A stretch of DNA of 63,886 bases, the filler included, from Atractiella rhizophila (Eukaryota): the NCBI GenBank assembly GCA_021432655.1. It is 14 parts of 14 records of this genome, joined end to end, with 100 filler letters (N's around TTAATTAATTAA, not from the genome) between each part and the next. Parts side by side here need not be neighbours in the genome. Positions count along the whole stretch, not along the records: positions 38,992 to 43,685 come from MU272432.1; 13 more parts are not named here. One strand, given 5' to 3'. This document shows positions 12,801 through 61,933 of the stretch, piece after piece. The position numbers were made by a program, and so were the translations under genes. The notes below the pieces were generated by a model, which searched no databases, had not been told where the DNA came from, and saw nothing but the letters and a program-made list of their open reading frames with translations. Numbering within the stretch: position 1 is the stretch's first letter; each line of letters opens with the position of its first letter.

Positions 12801-14692
12801 TATCTGGACCAGCTTTCAGGTACACCGGTAAATAATAATGTCGGAGAACTCCTCAACTTGCTCCACTTCTTAGTGTGTATCAATACATGGATCCCCTTGT
12901 TATTCCTGATTGTCATTAGGACCCTGACCACTGGGATGACGTTGAACACCTTAGCAAGGAATATGAGAATTTAGATCAGGCGCGTATCGAAAAGCTACGA
13001 GAGTCCTTGCGTCCCTACCTTCTGCGAAGGACCAAGGAGACTGTGCTGGATCTCCCGCCTTGCACGGAAATAATTATTCCGATGTCAATTTCACCACTTC
13101 AGAAGGAGATATGTGAGTGCGGTCAGTCTGTGACGGTAAAGAAATCTGACTAACCTTCAAAGACAAATCCTTATTGTCGAAGAATGCCGCTCTCATGGAA
13201 GCGCTTACTATGAAAACGAACAAGTCCAAGTCCAAGGTTTCCAAATCGAGTTTGTATGAAGTAATTTTCTATCCATATATTCCATCTGACGGAGATGAGG
13301 TCGTAGGAATAACCTCCTCATGCAGCTCAGGAAGTGTCTGGGGCACCCCTATCTCGTCTCTCCGGATATCGAGCCAATTAATCTGTCGCCTGAACAAGAG
13401 CATCTGTCATTGGTGGAAGCCTCTTCGAAGTTAACGCTTCTGCATCGTTTGTTACCAAAATTGAAGCAGAGGGGTCACCGGGTTCTCCTGTTCACTCAGT
13501 TCAAGATCGTCCTCGACATTCTCGAAACTTTCATGACAGAGGAGCGAATTACCTACTTGAGATTGGTGCGCATCCCATTCCTGTTGTGACAGTCACTAAT
13601 ACATATCTAGGATGGCAATACACCCCAAGAAACTCGTCAAAAAGGGATTGACCTTTTCAACAAGCCCAACTCACCTATCGATGTCTACATGCTTTCAACA
13701 AGGGCTGGTGGCGTTGGGATCAACCTTACAACCGCCGACACGGTCATCATTTTTGATTCAGATTGGAACCCACACCAAGATTTGCAGGCCATAGCTCGAG
13801 CCCATCGAATTGGTCAGAAAAAGCCGGTTAAAGTGTTCCGTCTAATGATTAAAAACACCTGCGAAGAAAAGATAATGCAAGCCGGGAAACGCAAGCTTGT
13901 GCTCGACCATCTCATCGTACAACGTATCAACGCAGTCGACGACACAGCTGATGACGTTGAATCAATCCTCCAATTCGGTGCTAAAGCCTTGTTCGAGGAT
14001 AAGGAAGGGGGAGAGGAGGTTATACAATATTCAGACGAAGATATCGAGAGGTTCTTTCTTTCTTTCTTTCTTTCTTTCTACCGACACGCTGATGCATTCC
14101 ATTCAGGCTTTTGGAGCGATCCGATGCTGAAGCTAAGTCTCCTCGGAAGAGTGTTGCAAACTCGTCCTTTGCATTTGCGCGAGTTTGGGAGCTCAAAAAA
14201 GACTCTTTAAATGATATGGAAGAGTCTACCTCGGCTCAAGACGACATCGAAGCCACCAGAGGATTCTGGAACAACATTCTGAAAGAGCAAGAGGAGGCAC
14301 AGCGAAAGGCTGAAACAGAAGCAGTGCTTGCTGGTGGGAAGGGGAAGAGGAAGCGCACGCAGCGGGTGCGTATCTCATTACCGACCATCGGTTGAGGGGC
14401 TAAAGATACCCTAGTTTGGTCCTAACCCGCGCTTTGAAGACAATTCCGACCCGGAATCACCAGACAGGAAGAAAAAGCGGAAGAACAAAGAGAAGGAGAA
14501 GAGGGATGATGAAGAATTCCTTATGAGGGATAGCAGCAGCAGCTCCAGCTCAGAGAACGCGGGGAGTGGAGAAGCTGGAACGATGGATGACGGAGATGTT
14601 GAACTGATGAAGTCGCTAGAGCAAAAGAGTCAGAAGGATAAAGATAAGAAGCAGAGAAAAGCTTTCAAAGAGCTCAGACGGAGAGGGATGGA
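9871..14692 (+). CDS. CHD/Mi-2 (Mit1-like) SNF2 chromatin remodeller with PHD-like fingers and chromodomains; many introns, both ends truncated
   Basis: Cys/His fingers ([31 protein letters not shown]); chromo-like YLVKFEE and [89 protein letters not shown]. Confidence 0.93.
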
Positions 14693-38891: not shown

Positions 38892-38991
38892 NNNNNNNNN
38901 NNNNNNNNNNNNNNNNNNNNNNNNNNNNNNNNNNNTTAATTAATTAANNNNNNNNNNNNNNNNNNNNNNNNNNNNNNNNNNNNNNNNNNNN

Positions 38992-39256
38992 CGTTCAGCA
39001 ACACCATTCTGTTGAGGAGATGCTGTAGCAGTCTGCTGACGAATGATTCCGGATTCTTTGAGAAATGCGTCAAATTCGAGGGAGGTGCATTCTCCCCCTA
39101 CATCATCTCTGATTTTCTTGAGCTGCTGTCCAGTCTGCTTCTCTGCCATCGTCTTGAAGTCACGAAAAGCTTGATATGCTTCGCTTTTCTTTCGGAGAAG
39201 GTTTACCCATGGGAATCGGGAATGGTCATCTACAGAGGTCATCCAATATCGAAATC
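38992..39256 (-). mobile_element. Ty1/Copia integrase core fragment
   Basis: GFRYWMTSVDDHSRFPWVNLLRKKSEA...KKIRDDVGGE...GIIRQQT...PQQNGVAER. Confidence 0.93.
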
Positions 39257-39909
39257 CCCTAACCCTAACCCTCATTCTTCCTATGCTGCAGCTCGACCAT
39301 CCCCATACTGCAAATGCAATTTGCCAGGCCTTGCCAATTTGCTAAATGGATGATGTATTCATGAATTGGTGCCAGCATGTGAAATCGTGAGGAGTGTGTA
39401 AGAATATCCTCAACATTTTCAGCAAGTCCGACCTTTAAGATTGAGGTGACAAGCACAGAAGCATCCTCTGAATGGGGAAGGCTTGAGTTATTGCCAAAGG
39501 TGATAACGTCATCAGCCAGAAGACCATCAGGGGTCCAAGATAGAAGGGCATAGTTAAAAGCACTGAGATCTTCATTCTTCCTGAGCAGAGGTGAATTGAA
39601 TGAAAGGAGAGCAAAGTTGCAAGGGTGTGTGTCTCTTTGCTGTCTTCGTTCCGGAGTACATTGGTTTTCTTCGCCTCCCATCCACCCACCAAAACCCTTA
39701 GCTCCTTGGTGGATTCTTCATTGGCACAAAGAATGAAGAGCTTGATAGACAAGGCATGAAGATCCAGCTCGGGAACCATGTCCTCGACTAGCTGGTCATC
39801 ATCCTCGTGACCCACGATGGGAAAGGCCCGAAGGAGTGAGATAGCCTGCTGGGTTCTCTGCCAGGATGACGATGCAGGAAACGGAGACGGGTTAGCATTT
39901 TGTTCGCGA

Positions 39910-40240: not shown

Positions 40241-40560
40241 CTGTCCCCAATAAGTCAGATCAAACGTTCCAAACGAATACGAGGCACTCCGCGGTCATTT
40301 CAGTACAGCCTATGTACCAACCTACAAACGGCCATTCTCATGGACAACCTTATACATCTTCGATGAACACGCATATTACTGTGCACAAATTGGCGATTTC
40401 TACTTCTACTCCGATGAGAGTATGAAAGAAAAGGTGTGGCCAGATCTAAGCTTCAAACTTACCCGCATAGGATCATTTTTTGTCAGCTTTAAGGAGGAGC
40501 ATCTGTGCCCTTTCATCCTTTCCATATTCTGTTTCTAAACTTCTACTCTCAAACCACAAA

Positions 40561-41067
40561 ATGAAGTTGGTGCCATTCGACCATCTGTTTCCTCATTGAC
40601 AAGGACGATAGCCCCAACAAAAAGCTCTATGTGGGAAACGTCCCCTACAATCTCGACCACACCACACTACAAACACTCTTCGTGCAGCATGGGGCAATTC
40701 AAGATTGCGTGATTATGGTGGAGAAAGAGACTAACAAGAGCAGAGGCTATGGTTTCGTCACCTTTCGGGACCAGGAAGATGCAGTGAAAGCTTGTACGCC
40801 ACTTCGTTGATCACAACGTGTCAACCATCCGTTTTTTTAACAGGTACATGCTTGAATGGTTTCCTCATCGTCAGTCTCCTTCTTTCAGCCTCTCCAGCAC
40901 TGACTCGAGGACAAGGGTAAGAACCACTTTGCGCCACCCTGTCAAAACTGAGTAATCATTCAGACGGCAGAGCACTCGTTGTTGACTTCGCTGTAGGTTA
41001 ATCTCCATCATCCCGATTCTAATGTTAACCTTCTTCGCAGGATGCAAGCCGCGAAAAGCAAAAATAA
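40561..41067 (+). CDS. Small single-RRM RNA-binding protein (about 89 aa), 5 introns
   Basis: MNPNKKLYVGNV (RNP2) ... SRGYGFVTF (RNP1) ... CLNGFLIDGRALVVDFADASREKQK*. Introns at 40566-40611, 40794-40843, 40870-40915, 40917-40963 and 40993-41040. Absent from the ORF track. Confidence 0.85.
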
Positions 41068-43785
41068 GGCAAAAGGTCTTGTGTGTGGCGTGCAAGTGAG
41101 CCACTCCCTCCATTCTTCATGCAGCGTAGGGTAAAGAAAAAGGCATCAGAGACGCTTCACTCCCAAAACCTTCCCCAGGAAGAAACTAAAACGAAATCGA
41201 ATAACGATGTGTTCCTCCTTCTGCTCATCTTTCTCTGCTTCAGTTCATTCTCATTGTTTTACTCAAATCAATCTTCGATTCCAACTAAACCTTTCCTCTG
41301 CATTCAAAACTTCATCTACTCAGTGCCAAATTCCGTTTTTATATTTTATCGGCTTTCTTGGGGACAGTTTGGAGAGGTCTTTGTTAGATAACTGGGACTA
41401 ATATGTTGGGATGCTGGCTCTCAAACTGCTGGGTCAATAGCCTTGATCAGGAGTGAGTACGATGTGTTACAACAATCCTGAGGTCGGAATCCAGTGCATG
41501 CATAACTATGAAGGTTGATAAGCTGTCAAGGACTGAATGCAGGAGCGCAAAAACCCGCATTCATGGCTAGCGCTCCTTCATTATGATGACGAAGGCATGA
41601 GCGTGGCTGAGCATTGGGCAAACCGGTGATGGGAACGCGACAGCAATAACATCGGGATATAGAGGGGAATCCTGGGACGGACAGATTGTTCTTCGTGATA
41701 TTCCATGAAGACAATTGCCATAAAATTTCACGTTCATATGTGAAGCAATCGATCTGATATGGCCAACGAGGAAAATTTCCGCGCACACCTCTCACAGCAA
41801 CTTAAGGCACTCCGTAAAGGTTTCGTCGTATCATCCTGTAATGCTTTTTGCGTCCTCCGAACTCTTCGGTGTGTCTGATTGAATCAAACAGACTTAGCAT
41901 GGTTGGGGGTTGTTCATCCGTCTAATTCCAGACCGTCCTTGTTGCCGGTTGAACCCTTGAGCTCCGCCATCTTTTCCGTCAAGAATAATTTCTGGGCCTA
42001 CAGGAGTCGAATCCCAAAATATTCTGTGAACGATGCGGCGCAGATGATGTTTCGGCCAGTCAGAAAGTTCCGAACCAGCGAGGTCAAGCTTGCCAAAAGC
42101 ACTACGGATATCTGAAGCGTTGTGGGTGGCATCCGGAATGTTTGGGTGAACAGCGACAAGAGCGTACTACCTTGGATTTCTCTTGATCCTCTACAATTCG
42201 ACTAACGATGTCGGAGGGCTAGAATCGCGAATGCCAATCTACTGATTAGCCGTCCTACAAAGCTCTCTGCAGAGTATTAGCGATCGTTGTGAAGACATTG
42301 ACAAATGGAGAAAACGTGTGTATACCCTTACCAGCTCGCCACATCTACGAACTAAAGTGGTTATTACAACCAAAAATTCCTTTACATTCTTAGGATTCAG
42401 TCTTTGTGAGCTCTCCTGCTCTCGTCCATCAGTCAATTCAACTTCATCGGCATTGCCTCCTGCTCGGCCTGTTCATCCTTCCATCGTCAGAGAAAGAGCC
42501 CGAGGGAACGCCTATCGAAAGCGAAGTGGTGCCTTGAACCGCATCGCTGATAAAAAAGGGTATTACTTTGAAAGTCCTCATGCCTTGGATATGAGGAAGA
42601 CACACGCGGTGAACTTGATGGATGCTGTTGGCATTCGATGGGAGACGAGTTTGGGTTCAGTTTTGTGGACCGGATTGAGCGATGACTGTTTGATCGGGTT
42701 TGATGGGAATGATCGAAGACGGGAAAGGATGGTGGAGAAGGAAAAGGAAATGATGATGTGGCTTGAGAGTATTATTTTGCGTAATCTGTATGACCTGATC
42801 GGAACATTCCATGTGACAGACGAAGGATACTCCTCTCTTGAATAAATTGCTCGGAACAGATGAACCACACCCAAACGCATTTACTGGTGAGTTGAGTTGA
42901 GTACTTGCTCGACACAAACCTCGTAAAATAGTGTCGTACTGCAAATAGCCTTCCTTGCCGTTGTCCCTCAATTCTTGGCGGTCGAGGGTGAGACGGTGGT
43001 ATCCATCTCCGTTTCTATACCGCGTACCTTTGGGGGGGGTGCGCATGGTTTTCGCCTTCTCTAATTGGAGAATAAAGAACGGCTGTCTTTGGATCCGGAG
43101 GATGCTAGCTGCGAGGAGGAAAATTGGAAGTGGGAAGCATATTTGTCAGGCTGGTTGCCCAATGCCAACATGAGAGCCCTAAGGGAGAAATGAACAAACC
43201 CTCTAACGAAGGAGAGAGGGGAAGACCAGGTACCCGAGGTCGGACCGGCATAGGAGAGCCAGGCATGGGAGGAGAACCATCTCGAGGGTAAATGGAAGTG
43301 AAGAGAGGTGGTTCCGTACGTTAACTTCTGCTCTGACCTGAGCTATGTAATGATGGTTATGAGATATAAGTGTGTCAATGGCCTTCGTCCCTCCGGCCCC
43401 AACCCACTTGCAAGGGCATGGCCCCTTGAACCCTACTTTGAATGTTGTCAGGGTTCGAGTCCAGTATGAAACACATTTTTTTACACGCTCACAATAAAAT
43501 TTTCCCGCGACTTCAGAAAGGCGCAAGCATATACAGCAAGGTGGTGTAATTCATTTCGTTTCAATGTGCGTGCTGAGGGAGGTATGAACGCTCAGCGTTT
43601 TATGACTCATGAGAAGAATGGATGGCTTTTAGAGGTAAGGACAAGTGTATCACTGCCCTCATCCCTCGGGCATCCCCCCCCCGCCNNNNNNNNNNNNNNN
43701 NNNNNNNNNNNNNNNNNNNNNNNNNNNNNTTAATTAATTAANNNNNNNNNNNNNNNNNNNNNNNNNNNNNNNNNNNNNNNNNNNN

Positions 43786-44279: not shown

Positions 44280-47245
44280 ATACATATCCTCACTCTGATC
44301 TGCATCTCCTTCGATAAGAGCCTTGTCTGCCTCCGACTCAGGGACTGGGCATATAGGTGCATCAGAGTGATGATGGTGAAGAACCCAGATGAAGGTTCTT
44401 CCCTCACCATCTTCTGCTTGAAAGATCCCGATCAAGCGCTTCATCTGATTGAGAGGCACCAGTCGGAGTTCGTTGCTCCATTGGCAAAGTTTTCGCTCCT
44501 GAAAAGGTTTCGGTATTTAGTGAAGAGCTGAGTGAGTACGAAGAGCTTGTCAGTGGCTTGGTCCAGTTTCCTGCGGGGTTTGCGCCGGCCCCACTTCACG
44601 ACGACCTGCACCCTCTCCTGCACAAATCTCAAACCCTGCCATGATGCGCATTTCTGTTCCCATGTTTATGTTTTGCTACTGATCACAATGCCCTCTCCAA
44701 AGGTATGGAGTGTGAGGTCATTAATGCAGCAAGACTTTCGCACAGAATCCAGGAGGGCTCTTCCCGATTCTTTGCGAAATGAGCGGAGACCTACCACCCT
44801 TACCGGATCTCCTTAATCAGCTAAGTTATTCTGCTTCACCTCCAGTTTCCATTTCTTCACCCCCTTCCTTTTCATCTCCTTCTCTCCCCGCTTCCCCCAT
44901 CACAGGCTCCCCAACTGCTCAGGTCACTCCTTATCAAAACCCATTTCTCACTTCTTCTGTCACCAAGTCTCCTAACACTGACGAACCACAATATGTGAAC
45001 AGCTACTCCGACGACACGAGCGAAGCTTCTTACCAAAACCTTCATCACCTTCTCTCCTTCGCGTCTACCAATACAACGCCCAAAAGTCTTTATCTGCATT
45101 TCATTCGCTCCTTTCAGATGCTCACTCCAATTTCGATCTTCTGCTAATCCAAGAACTATACATCACATCGGGGAACTCTCTGCTTTTTTCCATCGGAAAG
45201 CGCCGTTTTTCTACCTCCTTGTCTGCACGGTCAGTCATTCTCGTGAACGCCAACACGAGATCCGGATCCAGTACCCACCCCGTAACATCTCCGTCTCCCG
45301 AAATCTCTGCGGTCAAGATCGACTTCCCACCATTGACCTTTATCTTTGTTAACATTTACAATGCCGCCGACCTCATGTCTGAGACATTAAACACTTTAAA
45401 TTTGTTCATTCAACAACTCAGAAGGGAATACGCTTCTATCGAAAACTTTCTGCTTTATGTCGGAGGAGACTTCAACCTACACCACAATCTCTGGAACCAG
45501 GAAGGCTACTTTAGACGAGACCCTAAGACGGATGACTTACTAGAAAGGTTAACGGAAGAAGGACTGGAACTTAGGTCAGAACAAGGCATCATCACTTGGG
45601 CAGCAAGGGAGTCTCAAACGGTCATCGACTTGGTGTTCTTGAACACTGAAGCCGAAGACCTAGTAGAGCAATGCATAACCTCCCATGATCCCGATGAACC
45701 ATCGTTCTGACCATTTCCCCATCCTGACCACTTTTAACCTCAACAAGCAAGCTCCGTCAATGCTGCGCAGATTCAACCTCTCCAAGGCTAACTGGGAGAA
45801 GATGGCGGAAGAAGTAGAAAATGGATTAGGAAAGTACCCCTTTAACACAGAGATTCCTCTGAGGGATAGGGAGGACATTGACCTAGCAGTTGAACACCTC
45901 ACCAAATCGATCCAAAAAGCACTGGAGGTGTCGACATCAACGGTGAAGGTATCGAAGTTTTCCAAAAGATGGTGGGACGAGGAACTCTCAGAGCTCCGTG
46001 CTTGGGCTGGGAAGCGACGAAACAGGTTCCAAAAAACGAAAGACGGACGGGACTATGATTTGTGGCAAAGTTCCCTGCGTCATTTTCGAAGTGCAGTCCA
46101 AGCGCAAAAGCGTTCGCACTGGAACAATTTTCTCACATGCCTAGATGAGAAGTCCTTATGGACTGCTTCAGCATATGCCAAGCATGAAGAACGAGAGCGA
46201 CAAATTCCATCGCTTAAGAATCCAGACAACACGTTCACCATTGATAACCAAGAGAAAGCGAGGATCTTCCACGACACCTTCAGCGCTATGCACCCCAACC
46301 CTCTACTCGAAGATCTAGAATATGTTCAAGAGACACCAGAGGACCACATTTTCTTTGGAGATATCGAAATCCAAGAGCTAGACAGATACATCGAAAACGC
46401 AAAAGCAAAGTCAGATCCTGGTGACGACCGAATCTCAAATATGGTGCTCAAGGAACTTTGGCCTACTATTAGAGAAGTCCTATTCCACATTATCTCCTCT
46501 TCATATTCGATCAACTACTACCCACAAAAGTGGAAGAGCTTTACAACGGCAATATTAAGAAAGCCAAAAAAGCCAGATTATACGGTTCCAAAAGCTTCCC
46601 GCCCAATAACCCTTCTAAAATGCCTTGCTAAAGCATTTGATGGGGTCCTAGCATCGAAATTGGCTTTTTTTACCGAGAAACACGAGCTTCTTCCTCCGCA
46701 ACACTTTGGGGGCAGAGCTGGAAGGAGCAGCACTGATGCCCTGTTAACAGTGGTTGAATTCGTAATGGATGGCTGGCGGAAAGGGGAAGTGACAGCTGCC
46801 GCCTTCTTAGACGTTAAAGGAGCTTTCCCGTCAGTCATCCATCCCCGCCTTGTCTCCAATCTTCTCAAAGCCAAGGTTGACCCTCTCTTCTGTGGCATGA
46901 TCGAAACCTGGCTGGAGGGACGAAAGGGACGATCAACATCCTACTCCTTCGACGGGTTCAGTTCGAACCAGCTCGAAATCAAGATTAGGCTAGTACAGGG
47001 GTTTCCCTTATCCCCCATTCTCTTTCTATTCTACAATGCCCCCTTACTTAAGCTAGCTGTCCAACACAACTCACTTTCAGCTGGCTTCATTGACGACGTA
47101 TCTTTCATGATCAGATCGTCCTCATTGGCCCTGGCCATCCGGGATCTGGAAAGTATCCTTGACAAGGCAGAGGGATGGGGAGAAGAACATGGAGCACTGT
47201 TCGAAAGAGACAAAACTAAGTTTGTTCTGTTCACTCGAAACCTCT
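44280..47245 (+). mobile_element. Non-LTR retrotransposon (Tad1-like LINE): ORF1 end, APE endonuclease and reverse transcriptase; frameshifted and truncated
   Basis: ORF1 knuckle remnant CGVCAG(P/H)..C near 44570. APE motifs LRVYQYN, LLIQE, GDFNLHH, IDLVF, SDHFPI, with a frameshift near 45690. RT motifs KPKKPDY..RPITLL, HFGGR, LDVKGAF, QGFPLSP, FIDD. Confidence 0.93.
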
Positions 47246-47327
47246 TCATTAAATTAATTACCCTGGCCACCTGTCCCACAGAAGGAAAGTTTGACCCGCT
47301 CTTTGACTTTCAATTTATTCTCTCAAC

Positions 47328-48014
47328 ATGTTCGTAAAACACCCTCAGCTTCATTTCTAGCTGCTTCTTCGTAAACTTGTCCAGATCACTCCTCCAGATT
47401 CTTCATGCTCAACAATCTGAACACCTATTTTCTTCCGAAGTGGTACGTAAGTTTAGAGATTATTCGATAAATGAATGGTTCTGACCAAAAGCTACAGTTC
47501 TTCATCCTTCGTTGAGTCGTCCCATCCAGACAACTTCTGGTCCTCCAGACCACCTCTCCCGCCTCCATCTGGAGCGTCCCATCTCTCCTCACTCACAATT
47601 TACCAACCCCAACTGACATGGTACTCTTGCATTTTTAATCGTGTGACCGGTGTCGCCTTTTTGACAGCCCTTTACGGCTTTTCAATCGGCTACCTTAGGG
47701 GAATCTGGGACGGTAATACGTTCATCCCTCGTCGCTGACTTTCCGGAGTGCTGGAAGGTGCTCGGGAAAGGCACGCTTGCGTTGCCTTTCTGGTCCCATA
47801 CCTGGAATGGCTTCAGGCATTTAGGATTGGATCTCAGATATTGTGCGTCTTCTTAGATCAAATGGTGCAGACTCATTGGTCGCTCATTGGTCATGAATGT
47901 AGTTCTGAATCTGAAAACGAGCTATACCGCGGGTATACCGTCATTGGTCTCACTGCGGTTACAGCTGTCACCACCGCTCTGCTGCGAGAGCAGTTGCAAG
48001 CCGGATGGGAATAA
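47328..48014 (+). pseudogene. SDH3: Succinate dehydrogenase cytochrome b560 subunit pseudogene (introns retained)
   Basis: RPISPH / TIYQPQLTW...NRVTG...LYGF / LPFWSHTWNGFRHL..D / GYTVIGL. Linking these blocks needs frameshifts near 47592, 47724 and 47932. Confidence 0.85.
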
Positions 48015-59506: not shown

Positions 59507-61933
59507 ATGGCACCTCAAAGGCCAACTACTCCTCTGCTGAGACGCTCGTCCTTTTCCGCTTCAGCCTCCAGACGGCCACCCCAAATGTTGGCTGCTGATG
59601 AGGATTTCAAGATCTCGCCAATGATGGGAGAACTGGAGAGCGGATTTAGGGATCTGGCTGTGGGAATGGAGGGACTGGAAAGAAATGTACGGGAATTAGG
59701 CGAGGTGAGCATTTGAAGTATTTGGGCAAGCATCGGGAACTTGAAGTTGTCGATCATGTCGTTCGCTGTATTATCCCTCGCTTTCATGTAGCAAGATACA
59801 GGGACGACTTGCTGCTTTGGCTTTAGCCGTGCTTGCGATTTGAACTCAAAGAGGTCGCGCTTCCGTGTTGATTGTTTTTGCATTTCCACATTCTCAAGTC
59901 AGAATGTGCGAACTATTCCTTGATCATCATGTCCATTTCTTCAATTCAGCGGGAGAGTGTTGTATTTGCCAAGAATACCACATACCTGGCCGTACGCGTT
60001 ATAGCTCTGCCAAAGCACACCTCGGTACTTTTATCTTCTCAGTCTCACCACAGAATGTTACCATGTTCCACCGTCTTTTGGGAAAGTGCCAGCAAAAACG
60101 AAGGAGGTCAACTCTTTTTACTGTTTCCCATCGCGTCATGGCGAAAATGAATTTGTTTTCACTGATATGTACGACACATCGCGTAACGCCGTAGGCTCAG
60201 TTAGTTGGTGCCAAGTTGTGTCATAACTTGCTCCCTTACGAACAGTCGAATAACCCTTCAACACAGGAACAACCAAGCCGCCATAGTTACAACTGCTTGG
60301 TTGTCGATTGTCATATGTTACCAATCAGTTGCAGTTCCATGTCCCATTGACAGATTCAGTGCATGCTGTGTGAGATGCGATTATGTAGTACAAGTTCCTG
60401 GTGAGAAGAGTTTGCCCAAGCTTAGCTTCTGCACCCTGCAACAGTTGACTCCGGAACTCAAGGATCTGGATGGCGATCAACAACGAGTGCGAGGTGACTG
60501 GGAATCTTACCGATGCAAAACCAGTCACATCCACTTTCTAGCTGACTCGGCGTGCAGAACTGCTCGCTAACCTTTACGCCGCCACAGAAGCAGCACTGCA
60601 ACATGTTCATTCAGAGCCTTAGTGCCATCTTGCTGATGGGATGTAAACCACTTACACAAGGACCTTCTTGCTGCCCGCATTGGGCTGCTGCGATGGCTGA
60701 TAGACCAAGTGCGAGGACGATTTGATGAAATCTCATTGGAAGGTGTTACTGTTCGATTTGGTGGATTGGGCACGGAGCATTGGGGGAGCTTTGAGGCTTT
60801 ATGTGTCTGGACAATACGGCTTTAACCCCCACGGCGGGAAGAGCGATTTGAATTCTCGCCGACTAATGTTGCGATGTTGATTCTCTCCTCACTCGTTGTT
60901 ATTCACTATTAGGCGTTGATGACGGCCTTTTCTCCACCGTATCGTGCCGCAATCCTTAACTAACTTACCAAGCCAGTTGGTTTTGGGGTCCAAGACAAGT
61001 CCGTTGTTCTCGTCCTCTGTTGATATCGTCCATCATAGTTTCGCTACGGAGAGAATACCCTGTCCTGGAGTATCTACTGTGTTGCAGAAAACTAACTTTT
61101 TCTTAGCTGACAGGACGCATTAATGCCTTCAACGAATCATTTGCTTCCTTTCTTTACGGTATGAAAGTCAATGCCTATACCACAACTTTCGTGGAAGCGC
61201 CGACTGCCCATTCATTCGCCCTGGCACCCATATTCCAACAACGTCGCCAGCAACCACAACGCTCGATGGCTTCTGTCCAGCCTCTCCGTTCTCAGACTCC
61301 AGCTGGCGAAACAACTGTGATGGAATCGCGCACAGGAGTCGAGGAGACATTTATCAGCGATCAAGGACAAATTTCTCGGGTCGAGTCCTCGATACCAGTC
61401 CCTTCCAAAGGCGGGTCGTCCACCAATTCGAAAGGCAAGATAGGGAAGAAAGCTCTGCTCGTGCGCACTCATGTACCCTTCGTCGTCGTTCCAGCAATTC
61501 TCATCGTGTTTGATTGTAGAACTTCACTAGTCAGGTTATTGACACCCTTCCAATCATGTACAGGGAGCAGCAGTCTCATCGTTTGGAGATGGAAGCGGTA
61601 CTGGAGGAGCTGAGACTACAGCCAGAGGGAATGTAAGACTCCCCCACCGATCTTCTGATTTCCGTCGTTTACAAGCGTTACAGCACAGGTAGGCACATCT
61701 CGGTCGCGTAGTACCTCAGTTCATGCTGTCGCATCAGCCGAGCAAATCAGCAAGCACAGAACTCGAATCACGATGAATCGAATCCGCTTAGCCCTTAATC
61801 AGCTGGTTCAGACGAAGCATGTTGTAAAGAGCAATCAAGGAGTGAGTTGATAGTGCCTTCGCAAACGTTGTCGTGACACAGGTTACAGGGTCTCGTCATC
61901 TTTAGCCTAAATCCTTTAAAACACTCCTTCTAG
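59507..61933 (+). CDS. DAM1: DASH/Dam1 complex subunit Dam1
   Basis: MAPQRPTTPLLRR...ELESGFRDLAVGMEGLERNVRELGE, intron 59705-61106, then LTGRINAFNESFASFLYGMKVNAYTTTFVEAP. C-terminal extension ends GLVIFSLNPLKHSF*. Confidence 0.9.

Follow-up and report, generated by a model that had tools for sequence, protein, structure and literature searches.

At position 40916 of the Atractiella rhizophila DNA analyzed here, a single G lies between two units which each have the appearance of a complete short intron, and the question which this locus raises is whether that base is an exon in its own right. The window (the whole stretch of DNA analyzed, 63,886 nt in length and composed of 14 parts of assembly GCA_021432655.1 joined end to end, such that neighboring parts need not be neighbors in the genome) was the subject of an earlier note, which described the two intron units, at 40870 to 40915 (46 nt) and at 40917 to 40963 (47 nt), with the lone G40916 between them, a description which is exact in the sequence. 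It is considered probable that G40916 represents a real 1-nt exon (exon 4) between abutting U2-type GT-AG introns in a gene for an 89-amino-acid single-RRM protein; the earlier note had proposed such an exon, and the proposal is supported by the splice signals, by the fit to homologs, and by the length of a contig from a close relative. Transcription and splicing of this very locus in the 1-nt form, together with the order in which its introns are removed, are predicted, the RNA contigs which bear on them being those of the relative.

Organization of the RRM gene

The locus was rebuilt by coordinates as a small plus-strand RRM gene with a CDS of 270 nt, six exons, and five introns of 46 to 50 nt. 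The coding part of exon 1 (40561 to 40565) consists of the ATG at 40561 plus 2 nt, and the encoded N-terminus, MNPNKK, equals that of P0003, a 90-amino-acid A. rhizophila protein annotated as "RNA binding protein." Intron 1 (40566 to 40611; 46 nt; donor GTTGGT; acceptor GATAG) carries the motif TTGAC, with its A at 40599, and skips an AG ending at 40603, 4 nt past this branch A. A contig of the relative (record 17 of run X3, detailed below) begins its match at 40612, and its loose end before that position closes with ...AAAATGAA (ATGAA), which provides the join between exon 1 and exon 2. Exon 2 (40612 to 40793; 182 nt) specifies the bulk of the RRM, with the motifs LYVGNV and RGYGFVTF, and is followed by intron 2 (40794 to 40843; 50 nt; GTACGC...AACAG), into which two existing gene models, P0002 and P0005, run before they stop.

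Exon 3 (40844 to 40869; 26 nt) encodes ...CTCLNGFLI and ends in ...GGT TTC CTC ATC, with a paralog variant (G to C at 40850) which yields the Ser found in P0003. Downstream lie intron 3 (40870 to 40915; 46 nt; donor GTCAGT; CTGAC with its A at 40903; acceptor ACAAG), the proposed exon 4 (40916 to 40916), which would supply base 1 of the Asp codon G/AC in ...LNGFLI-D-GR..., and intron 4 (40917 to 40963; 47 nt; donor GTAAGA; CTGAG with its A at 40951; acceptor TTCAG, followed by ACGGCAGA). Exon 5 (40964 to 40992; 29 nt; ..GRALVVDFA) is separated by intron 5 (40993 to 41040; 48 nt; donor GTAGGT; TTAAC with its A at 41028; acceptor CGCAG) from the coding part of exon 6 (41041 to 41067), which encodes DASREKQK and ends with the stop codon TAA at 41065 to 41067, the C-terminus being again that of P0003; the record 17 match picks up exactly at 41041. 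All features are located on the plus strand.

G40916 is thus flanked by two complete GT-AG units (46 and 47 nt) one base apart, the sizes of which are like those of the other three introns (46, 50, and 48 nt). GT and AG form the ends of all five introns. In introns 1, 3, 4, and 5, the distance from the A of a YTRAN branch-like motif to the final intron base is exactly 12 nt, and G occupies donor position +5 in four of the five donors. These regularities suggest a very tight minimal-intron architecture in this genome. A window-wide scan for intron-like units returned a weak excess at 45 to 49 nt (68 units versus 61.1 expected), with ratios of mostly 0.6 to 0.9 in the other length bins, the motif definition being too loose to serve for a length distribution.

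Reading frame and conserved spacing of the RRM

With G40916 retained, the gene encodes an 89-amino-acid single-RRM protein with 87.8% identity to P0003 across the full 90 aligned positions; P0003 reads ...LNGFHIDGRALVVDFADPSREKQK at the corresponding stretch, and its alignment is gap free only with the 1-nt model. Exon 2 alone scores 61.8 bits (E value, 5.8e-17) against positions 1 to 55 of the 70 positions of the Pfam RRM_1 profile (PF00076), which places it within RRM_1 by the curated cut-off of 20.7 bits, and P0003 scores 70.4 bits over positions 1 to 69 of 70.

A homolog profile was assembled from 65 distinct intronless metagenome translations. The underlying metagenome scan matched 599 stretches, of which 436 were confirmed and 80 loci were kept, all of them uninterrupted matches of 41 to 52% identity; duplicates and translations outside 70 to 130 amino acids (15 of the 80) were dropped. 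No fungal orthologue occurred among the 80 kept loci, which are used here as intronless length markers. Against this profile, the 1-nt model (CDS of 270 nt, 89 amino acids, in frame) scored 93.0 bits with no gap. The three other conceivable products gave lower values, namely, 87.9 bits for a 7-nt exon at 40910 to 40916 (CDS of 276 nt, in frame, two residues added), 82.7 bits for the use of a GTTTCC donor at 40859 (CDS of 258 nt, in frame, four residues deleted), and 78.1 bits for removal of the 94 nt from 40870 to 40963 as a whole (CDS of 269 nt, frameshifted). Within the stretch aligned to LNGFLIDGRALVV, all 65 homologs have 13 residues, compared to 15 in the 7-nt model and 9 in the GTTTCC model. 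The spacing which the earlier note had recognized as the canonical LNGxxxDGR of RRMs is therefore reproduced free of gaps relative to 65 of 65 intronless homologs and to P0003, and its observation that excision of 40870 to 40963 as one intron shifts the frame is borne out by the lengths of 269 versus 270 nt. Both the reading frame and the conserved spacing of the protein depend on the single base, the retention of which, judging from the alignments, would keep the RRM loop between helix 2 and strand 4 at its usual length.

Chance occurrence, assembly, and sequence variation

The likelihood of such an arrangement arising by chance was assessed with 20,000 dinucleotide-preserving shuffles of the 94-nt interior, in which the outer donor hexamer and the last 20 nt were kept fixed and a success was defined by a donor-like hexamer, a branch-like motif 8 to 25 nt before an AG, and both halves measuring 40 to 60 nt. 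A 1-nt split comparable to that observed was obtained in 16 of the 20,000 shuffles, and any split of 1, 4, 7, or 10 nt was obtained in 33.

An assembly indel at 40916, which the earlier note had named as a potential refutation, left no sign and is unlikely, because each of the DNA-type runs X1 and X2 contains a 334-nt contig which covers 40741 to 41074 with 0 differences; X1 and X2 represent one sample, possibly the source of the assembly, such that their agreement with the assembly is not independent. Sequence variation is consistent with the proposed frame, in which 13 of 22 listed coding positions that differ between relatives occupy the third place of a codon (P = 0.012), a count confined to the best-supported positions, with 69 further rows standing outside it. 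The 13 include the paralog differences at 40974 and 40980, both located in exon 5.

Possible sources of the two introns were sought within the window. No copies of any of the gene's introns were found elsewhere in these 64 kb, the best chance matches being 12 to 15 nt in length (E values of at least 0.11), and introns 3 and 4 are not alike (z = 0.5), the highest pairwise value being that of introns 1 and 3 (z = 2.0). The birth of introns 3 and 4 by duplication or from a repeated element thus finds no support within the 64-kb window.

Spliced and possibly partly spliced contigs of a close relative

Contigs of runs X1 to X3 were aligned to the window at 80% likeness. Among the sequencing runs checked, the only RNA run to match this stretch was X3, with 0.04 of words, its RNA label being a guess; X3 is a probable RNA run of organism B, a close relative, whose contigs are 88 to 92% identical to the locus; no contig corresponded to the mature mRNA of the locus itself. 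Record 17 of this run (840 nt; depth, 9.2; approximately 92% identical in exon 2) covers 40612 to 40797, continues with 52 other letters, and returns at 41041 to 41075, with intron 1 spliced out. As GTAC is present both at 40794 to 40797 and at 40844 to 40847, that is, at the starts of both intron 2 and exon 3, four exon 3 letters of record 17 were placed on the start of intron 2, and the true distance between exon 2 and exon 6 in this contig is consequently 56 nt, equal to 26 + 1 + 29. The corresponding distances would be 62 nt for the 7-nt exon, 55 nt for full removal of the 94 nt, and 44 nt for the GTTTCC donor. The support offered by record 17 lies in the number of its 52 letters rather than in their sequence. 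Three gaps in exon 2 and a G-to-C difference at 41044 correspond to the extra residue and the Pro of P0003, and record 17 is for this reason read as the mRNA of a P0003-like paralog.

A second contig, record 19 (151 nt; depth, 4), joins 40869 to 40916, thereby skipping exactly 46 nt with GT..AG ends, and runs on through 40916 to 40938 (the G and 22 nt of intron 4) with 0 mismatches, while intron 2 is retained. Its short side comprises 23 letters, which is under the 31-letter bridging rule and the 30-letter warning, and its long side is approximately 88% identical to the locus. Record 19 could be a pre-mRNA from which only intron 3 has been lost, or it could be paralog DNA or pre-mRNA devoid of intron 3. 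Whichever its nature, 40870 to 40915 behaves as a discrete intron which leaves the G in place. If record 19 is RNA, it suggests that the upstream intron (intron 3) can leave first, the opposite order being possible as well. The partly spliced intermediate for which the earlier note had advised searching is therefore matched in part, as the contig is without intron 3 and contains the start of intron 4, but it derives from a relative, has the 23-letter side described above, and may represent a paralog.

Paralogs, gene models, and origin of the family

The RRM gene belongs to a multicopy family, with 46 contigs in X1 and 40 in X2 aligning at 80% likeness or above over 40560 to 41075. At least nine other family contigs are present in X1, up to nine different contigs carry another letter at 40640, and the flanks (e.g., 41076 to 41147) are covered at the depth of one contig only. 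The G-to-C variant at 41044 recurs in a 330-nt genomic paralog contig, which is present in both X1 and X2 as records 6 and 13. The match of this contig to the window extends to 40883 and takes in the initial 14 nt of intron 3; the 60 nt at 40884 to 40943 are then replaced by 65 others, and from 40944 onward the contig corresponds to the window again, through the remainder of intron 4 and exon 5, an intron 5 which has diverged, and exon 6. From this layout, the P0003-like gene has an interval of approximately 99 nt of which its mRNA keeps one base. This interval would not be a single in-phase intron and, given the same boundary sequences, no single canonical intron leaves exactly one base. Two further paralog contigs of X1 extend from exon 3 into intron 3, with an ACTGACT branch motif approximately 6 nt downstream of the position in the window. 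Of the two abutting introns, the paralog DNA contigs thus retain the beginning of intron 3, its branch motif, and the 3′ end of intron 4, the AG-G-GT core itself being outside the sequence read.

A search of the protein collection with exon 2 returned four proteins among four candidates. P0002 is the window's own 62-amino-acid read-through model, P0003 is 86% identical in this search, and P0004 and P0005 are "partial" A. rhizophila models whose ends coincide with that of exon 2 or lie just beyond it. Truncated models of 60 to 62 amino acids, which stop at the end of exon 2 or inside intron 2, account for three of the four proteins of the family (P0002, P0004, and P0005), and the downstream exons of 26, 1, 29, and 27 nt have evidently been missed by annotation, in agreement with the expectation expressed beforehand that gene predictors would overlook the 1-nt exon.

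When P0003 was used as the query, 61 matches were obtained among 66 candidates, none of which was a further full-length relative. Its non-Atractiella matches were bacterial-type RRM proteins of approximately 40 to 50% identity. In the P0003 and metagenome searches together, the best matches outside Atractiella were intronless bacterial-type RRM proteins of approximately 41 to 52% identity over nearly the full length, one of which was named Thermoanaerobaculia, and no named fungal protein outside Atractiella was recovered, a result which may reflect gene transfer or only the limits of these word-based searches. Within the searches made, the nearest kin of the family outside Atractiella are accordingly intronless bacterial-type RRM proteins, at approximately 49% identity. 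A broader proposal, which we regard as quite unlikely, is that the 1-nt exon is no isolated case but occurs throughout a set of about ten or more small, nearly identical RRM genes of this fungus; were this family acquired from bacteria or otherwise young, all five of the 46- to 50-nt introns would have been gained within 270 nt of coding sequence. In that event, the family would provide a natural record of very dense recent intron gain, including two introns one base apart, and a multicopy system in which the sequential splicing of abutting introns may be studied.

Alternative readings of the 94-nt interval

The rival explanation with the greatest claim to attention, albeit an unlikely one, holds that the copy is silent or defective, either because the 94 nt are removed as one intron, with the resulting frameshift, or because the gene, lying in a region rich in transposons, is a paralog which is not transcribed; in either event, the 1-nt exon would be no more than a formal solution. 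Removal of the 94 nt would employ the same strong outer sites (the donor at 40870 and the acceptor at 40963), and longer introns appear to exist in the window, where an Ofd1-like gene contains a gap of approximately 148 nt, presumably an intron, between two parts of the match to P0006, so that length alone is compatible with a single 94-nt intron. In work cited in PMC4674806, moreover, 33% of transcripts skipped a 1-nt exon which had been introduced artificially. An integrase fragment (38943 to 39341) and a LINE-like element (44982 to 47334) lie nearby, and X1 includes the nine or more other family contigs; situated among transposon remains and within a multicopy family, this copy could be silent. 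Nevertheless, the skipped form loses RRM strand 4 and has the lowest profile score (78.1 versus 93.0 bits), canonical signals are present in all five introns and the frame is intact over six exons, the differences from relatives cluster on third codon positions, exon 5 included, and the spliced contig of the relative has the length of the 1-nt product, not that of the skipped product.

The two remaining rivals preserve the frame and differ from the preferred reading in the splice site which they employ. A 7-nt microexon (GACAAGG, 40910 to 40916), in which the acceptor of intron 3 is the AG at 40908 to 40909 and the product reads ...LNGFLIDKDGR..., is in frame (276 nt) and reaches 87.9 bits, but this AG is located only 6 nt past the branch A at 40903, versus 12 nt in four of the five introns, and in intron 1, too, an AG 4 nt past the branch A is left unused, a choice confirmed by the contig of the relative. 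The two-residue insertion is observed in 0 of 65 homologs, record 19 joins at 40916 and not at 40910, and record 17 has 52 letters where 58 would be needed; this microexon is accordingly very improbable as the main product, while a minor isoform with the GACAAGG insert could exist. Still less credible is the joining of the weak GTTTCC donor at 40859 to 40964, which the earlier note had put forward as a refuting outcome. The removal of 105 nt would be in frame (258 nt; 82.7 bits) and would yield ...CLNDGRALVV, yet it deletes four residues kept in 65 of 65 homologs and in P0003, its donor has no G at position +5, the 52 letters of record 17 compare with 40 under this model, and 40859 to 40869 are present as exon in record 19. 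Retention of G40916 as a 1-nt exon thus remains the preferred reading of the interval.

Proposed mechanism of splicing

Under the reading of G40916 as a 1-nt exon, intron definition would allow each of the 46- and 47-nt introns to be recognized on its own. The intron 3 acceptor (AAG/G) and the intron 4 donor (G/GTAAGA) would overlap in the bases contacted by the splicing machinery, for which reason introns 3 and 4 are not expected to be engaged simultaneously and would be removed in sequence, in the manner of recursive splicing but with one base left behind. Once either intron is out, the other would be flanked by an ordinary exon, and the retained G would become the first base of the Asp codon in LNGFLI-D-GRALVV.

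At recursive splice sites, the intervening stretch is removed in two consecutive canonical reactions, with AG abutting GT and nothing retained, while in stwintrons, as they are described, one of the outer intron's splice signals (donor, branch, or acceptor) is split by an inner intron, so that the outer intron can function only once the inner one has been excised. The present arrangement has in common with both, as characterized in those accounts, two consecutive canonical splicing reactions and a 3′ splice site which directly abuts a 5′ splice site; what sets it apart from them is that each intron is already complete before any splicing and that a single base would be kept in the mRNA. A stwintron was considered and rejected, as both units have intact signals of their own and no splice site has to be formed first. 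A recursive splice site in the strict sense (a zero-length exon) was also discarded, as G40916 separates the sites and must be retained. The locus works like a recursive splice site without being one.

Comparison with known one-base exons

The earlier note had regarded 1-nt exons as very rare, and rare they are, although they are less unprecedented than it assumed, being already documented in Arabidopsis, Fusarium, and Coprinopsis. The closest parallel is provided by 24 Fusarium CYP621A P450 genes, for which a 1-nt exon with an AGGGT core and support from SRA reads has been reported (PMC12940212). As described there, these genes resemble the present locus in that a single G is situated between two short GT-AG introns of a fungal gene with an identical AGGGT core, in that the exon completes a codon inside a conserved motif, in that automated gene models are wrong, and in that the exon was deduced from out-of-phase boundaries, an intronless homolog having served as the length marker (PMC12940212). 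The differences are that the Fusarium gene is an ascomycete P450 gene in which the G is the middle base of a Gly codon, whereas in the basidiomycete RRM gene described here, the G opens an Asp codon, and that the Fusarium report draws on conservation over 24 genes and on reads of the same species, whereas the RNA contigs used here are from a relative (PMC12940212). The authors of that report argue that G is favored as the single base because it fits both splice-site consensuses (PMC12940212), an argument which G40916 fits. As an independent case in a third fungal lineage with the AGGGT core known from Fusarium, and one which may recur among the paralogs of the family, the locus supports G as the favored single base.

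In Arabidopsis APC11, a constitutive 1-nt exon between two introns was validated with GFP fusions, and a model of intron definition coupled with sequential, recursive-like removal was proposed (PMC4674806). The mechanism put forward there is the same as that suggested for G40916; the cases differ in that APC11 is a plant gene with experimental validation, in which the report describes the identity of the base as immaterial, while the present exon is proposed from sequence (PMC4674806). A long-read annotation of Coprinopsis cinerea lists 13 genes with 1-nt exons (PMC12230235). According to that account, C. cinerea is similar in being a basidiomycete with short introns, in which 1-nt exons were found only by means of transcripts and their omission breaks gene models, and it is different in belonging to Agaricomycotina, another subphylum (PMC12230235).

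A search of the literature on Atractiella microexons, introns, and exons found no paper on this gene and, as far as the literature searched shows, G40916 appears to be the first 1-nt exon in an Atractiella-like fungus. One-base exons indicate that short fungal introns are recognized as self-contained units and can be removed successively from abutting positions, and they break automated annotation. For annotators, the pattern to be searched consists of two minimal-size introns one base apart with out-of-phase flanking exons.

Neighborhood of the gene in the window

Just upstream of the RRM gene, the integrase-core (rve) fragment at 38943 to 39341 lies on the minus strand and scores 28.2 bits versus a Pfam cut-off of 32.6, and downstream, the LINE-like element at 44982 to 47334 on the plus strand encodes endonuclease and reverse transcriptase domains. 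An Ofd1-like 2OG-Fe(II) oxygenase gene is located at 1 to 1744 on the plus strand. The protein P0006, the only one returned by a search with this open reading frame, is 100% identical to this gene over 1 to 372 and 92% identical over 521 to 1744, a mosaic in which the lower identity results partly from a 57-nt intron read through in the open reading frame and partly from real substitutions. Two further plus-strand open reading frames, at 13611 to 14207 and at 61107 to 61610, match Helicase_C and the DASH complex subunit Dam1, respectively, and are ordinary fungal housekeeping genes.
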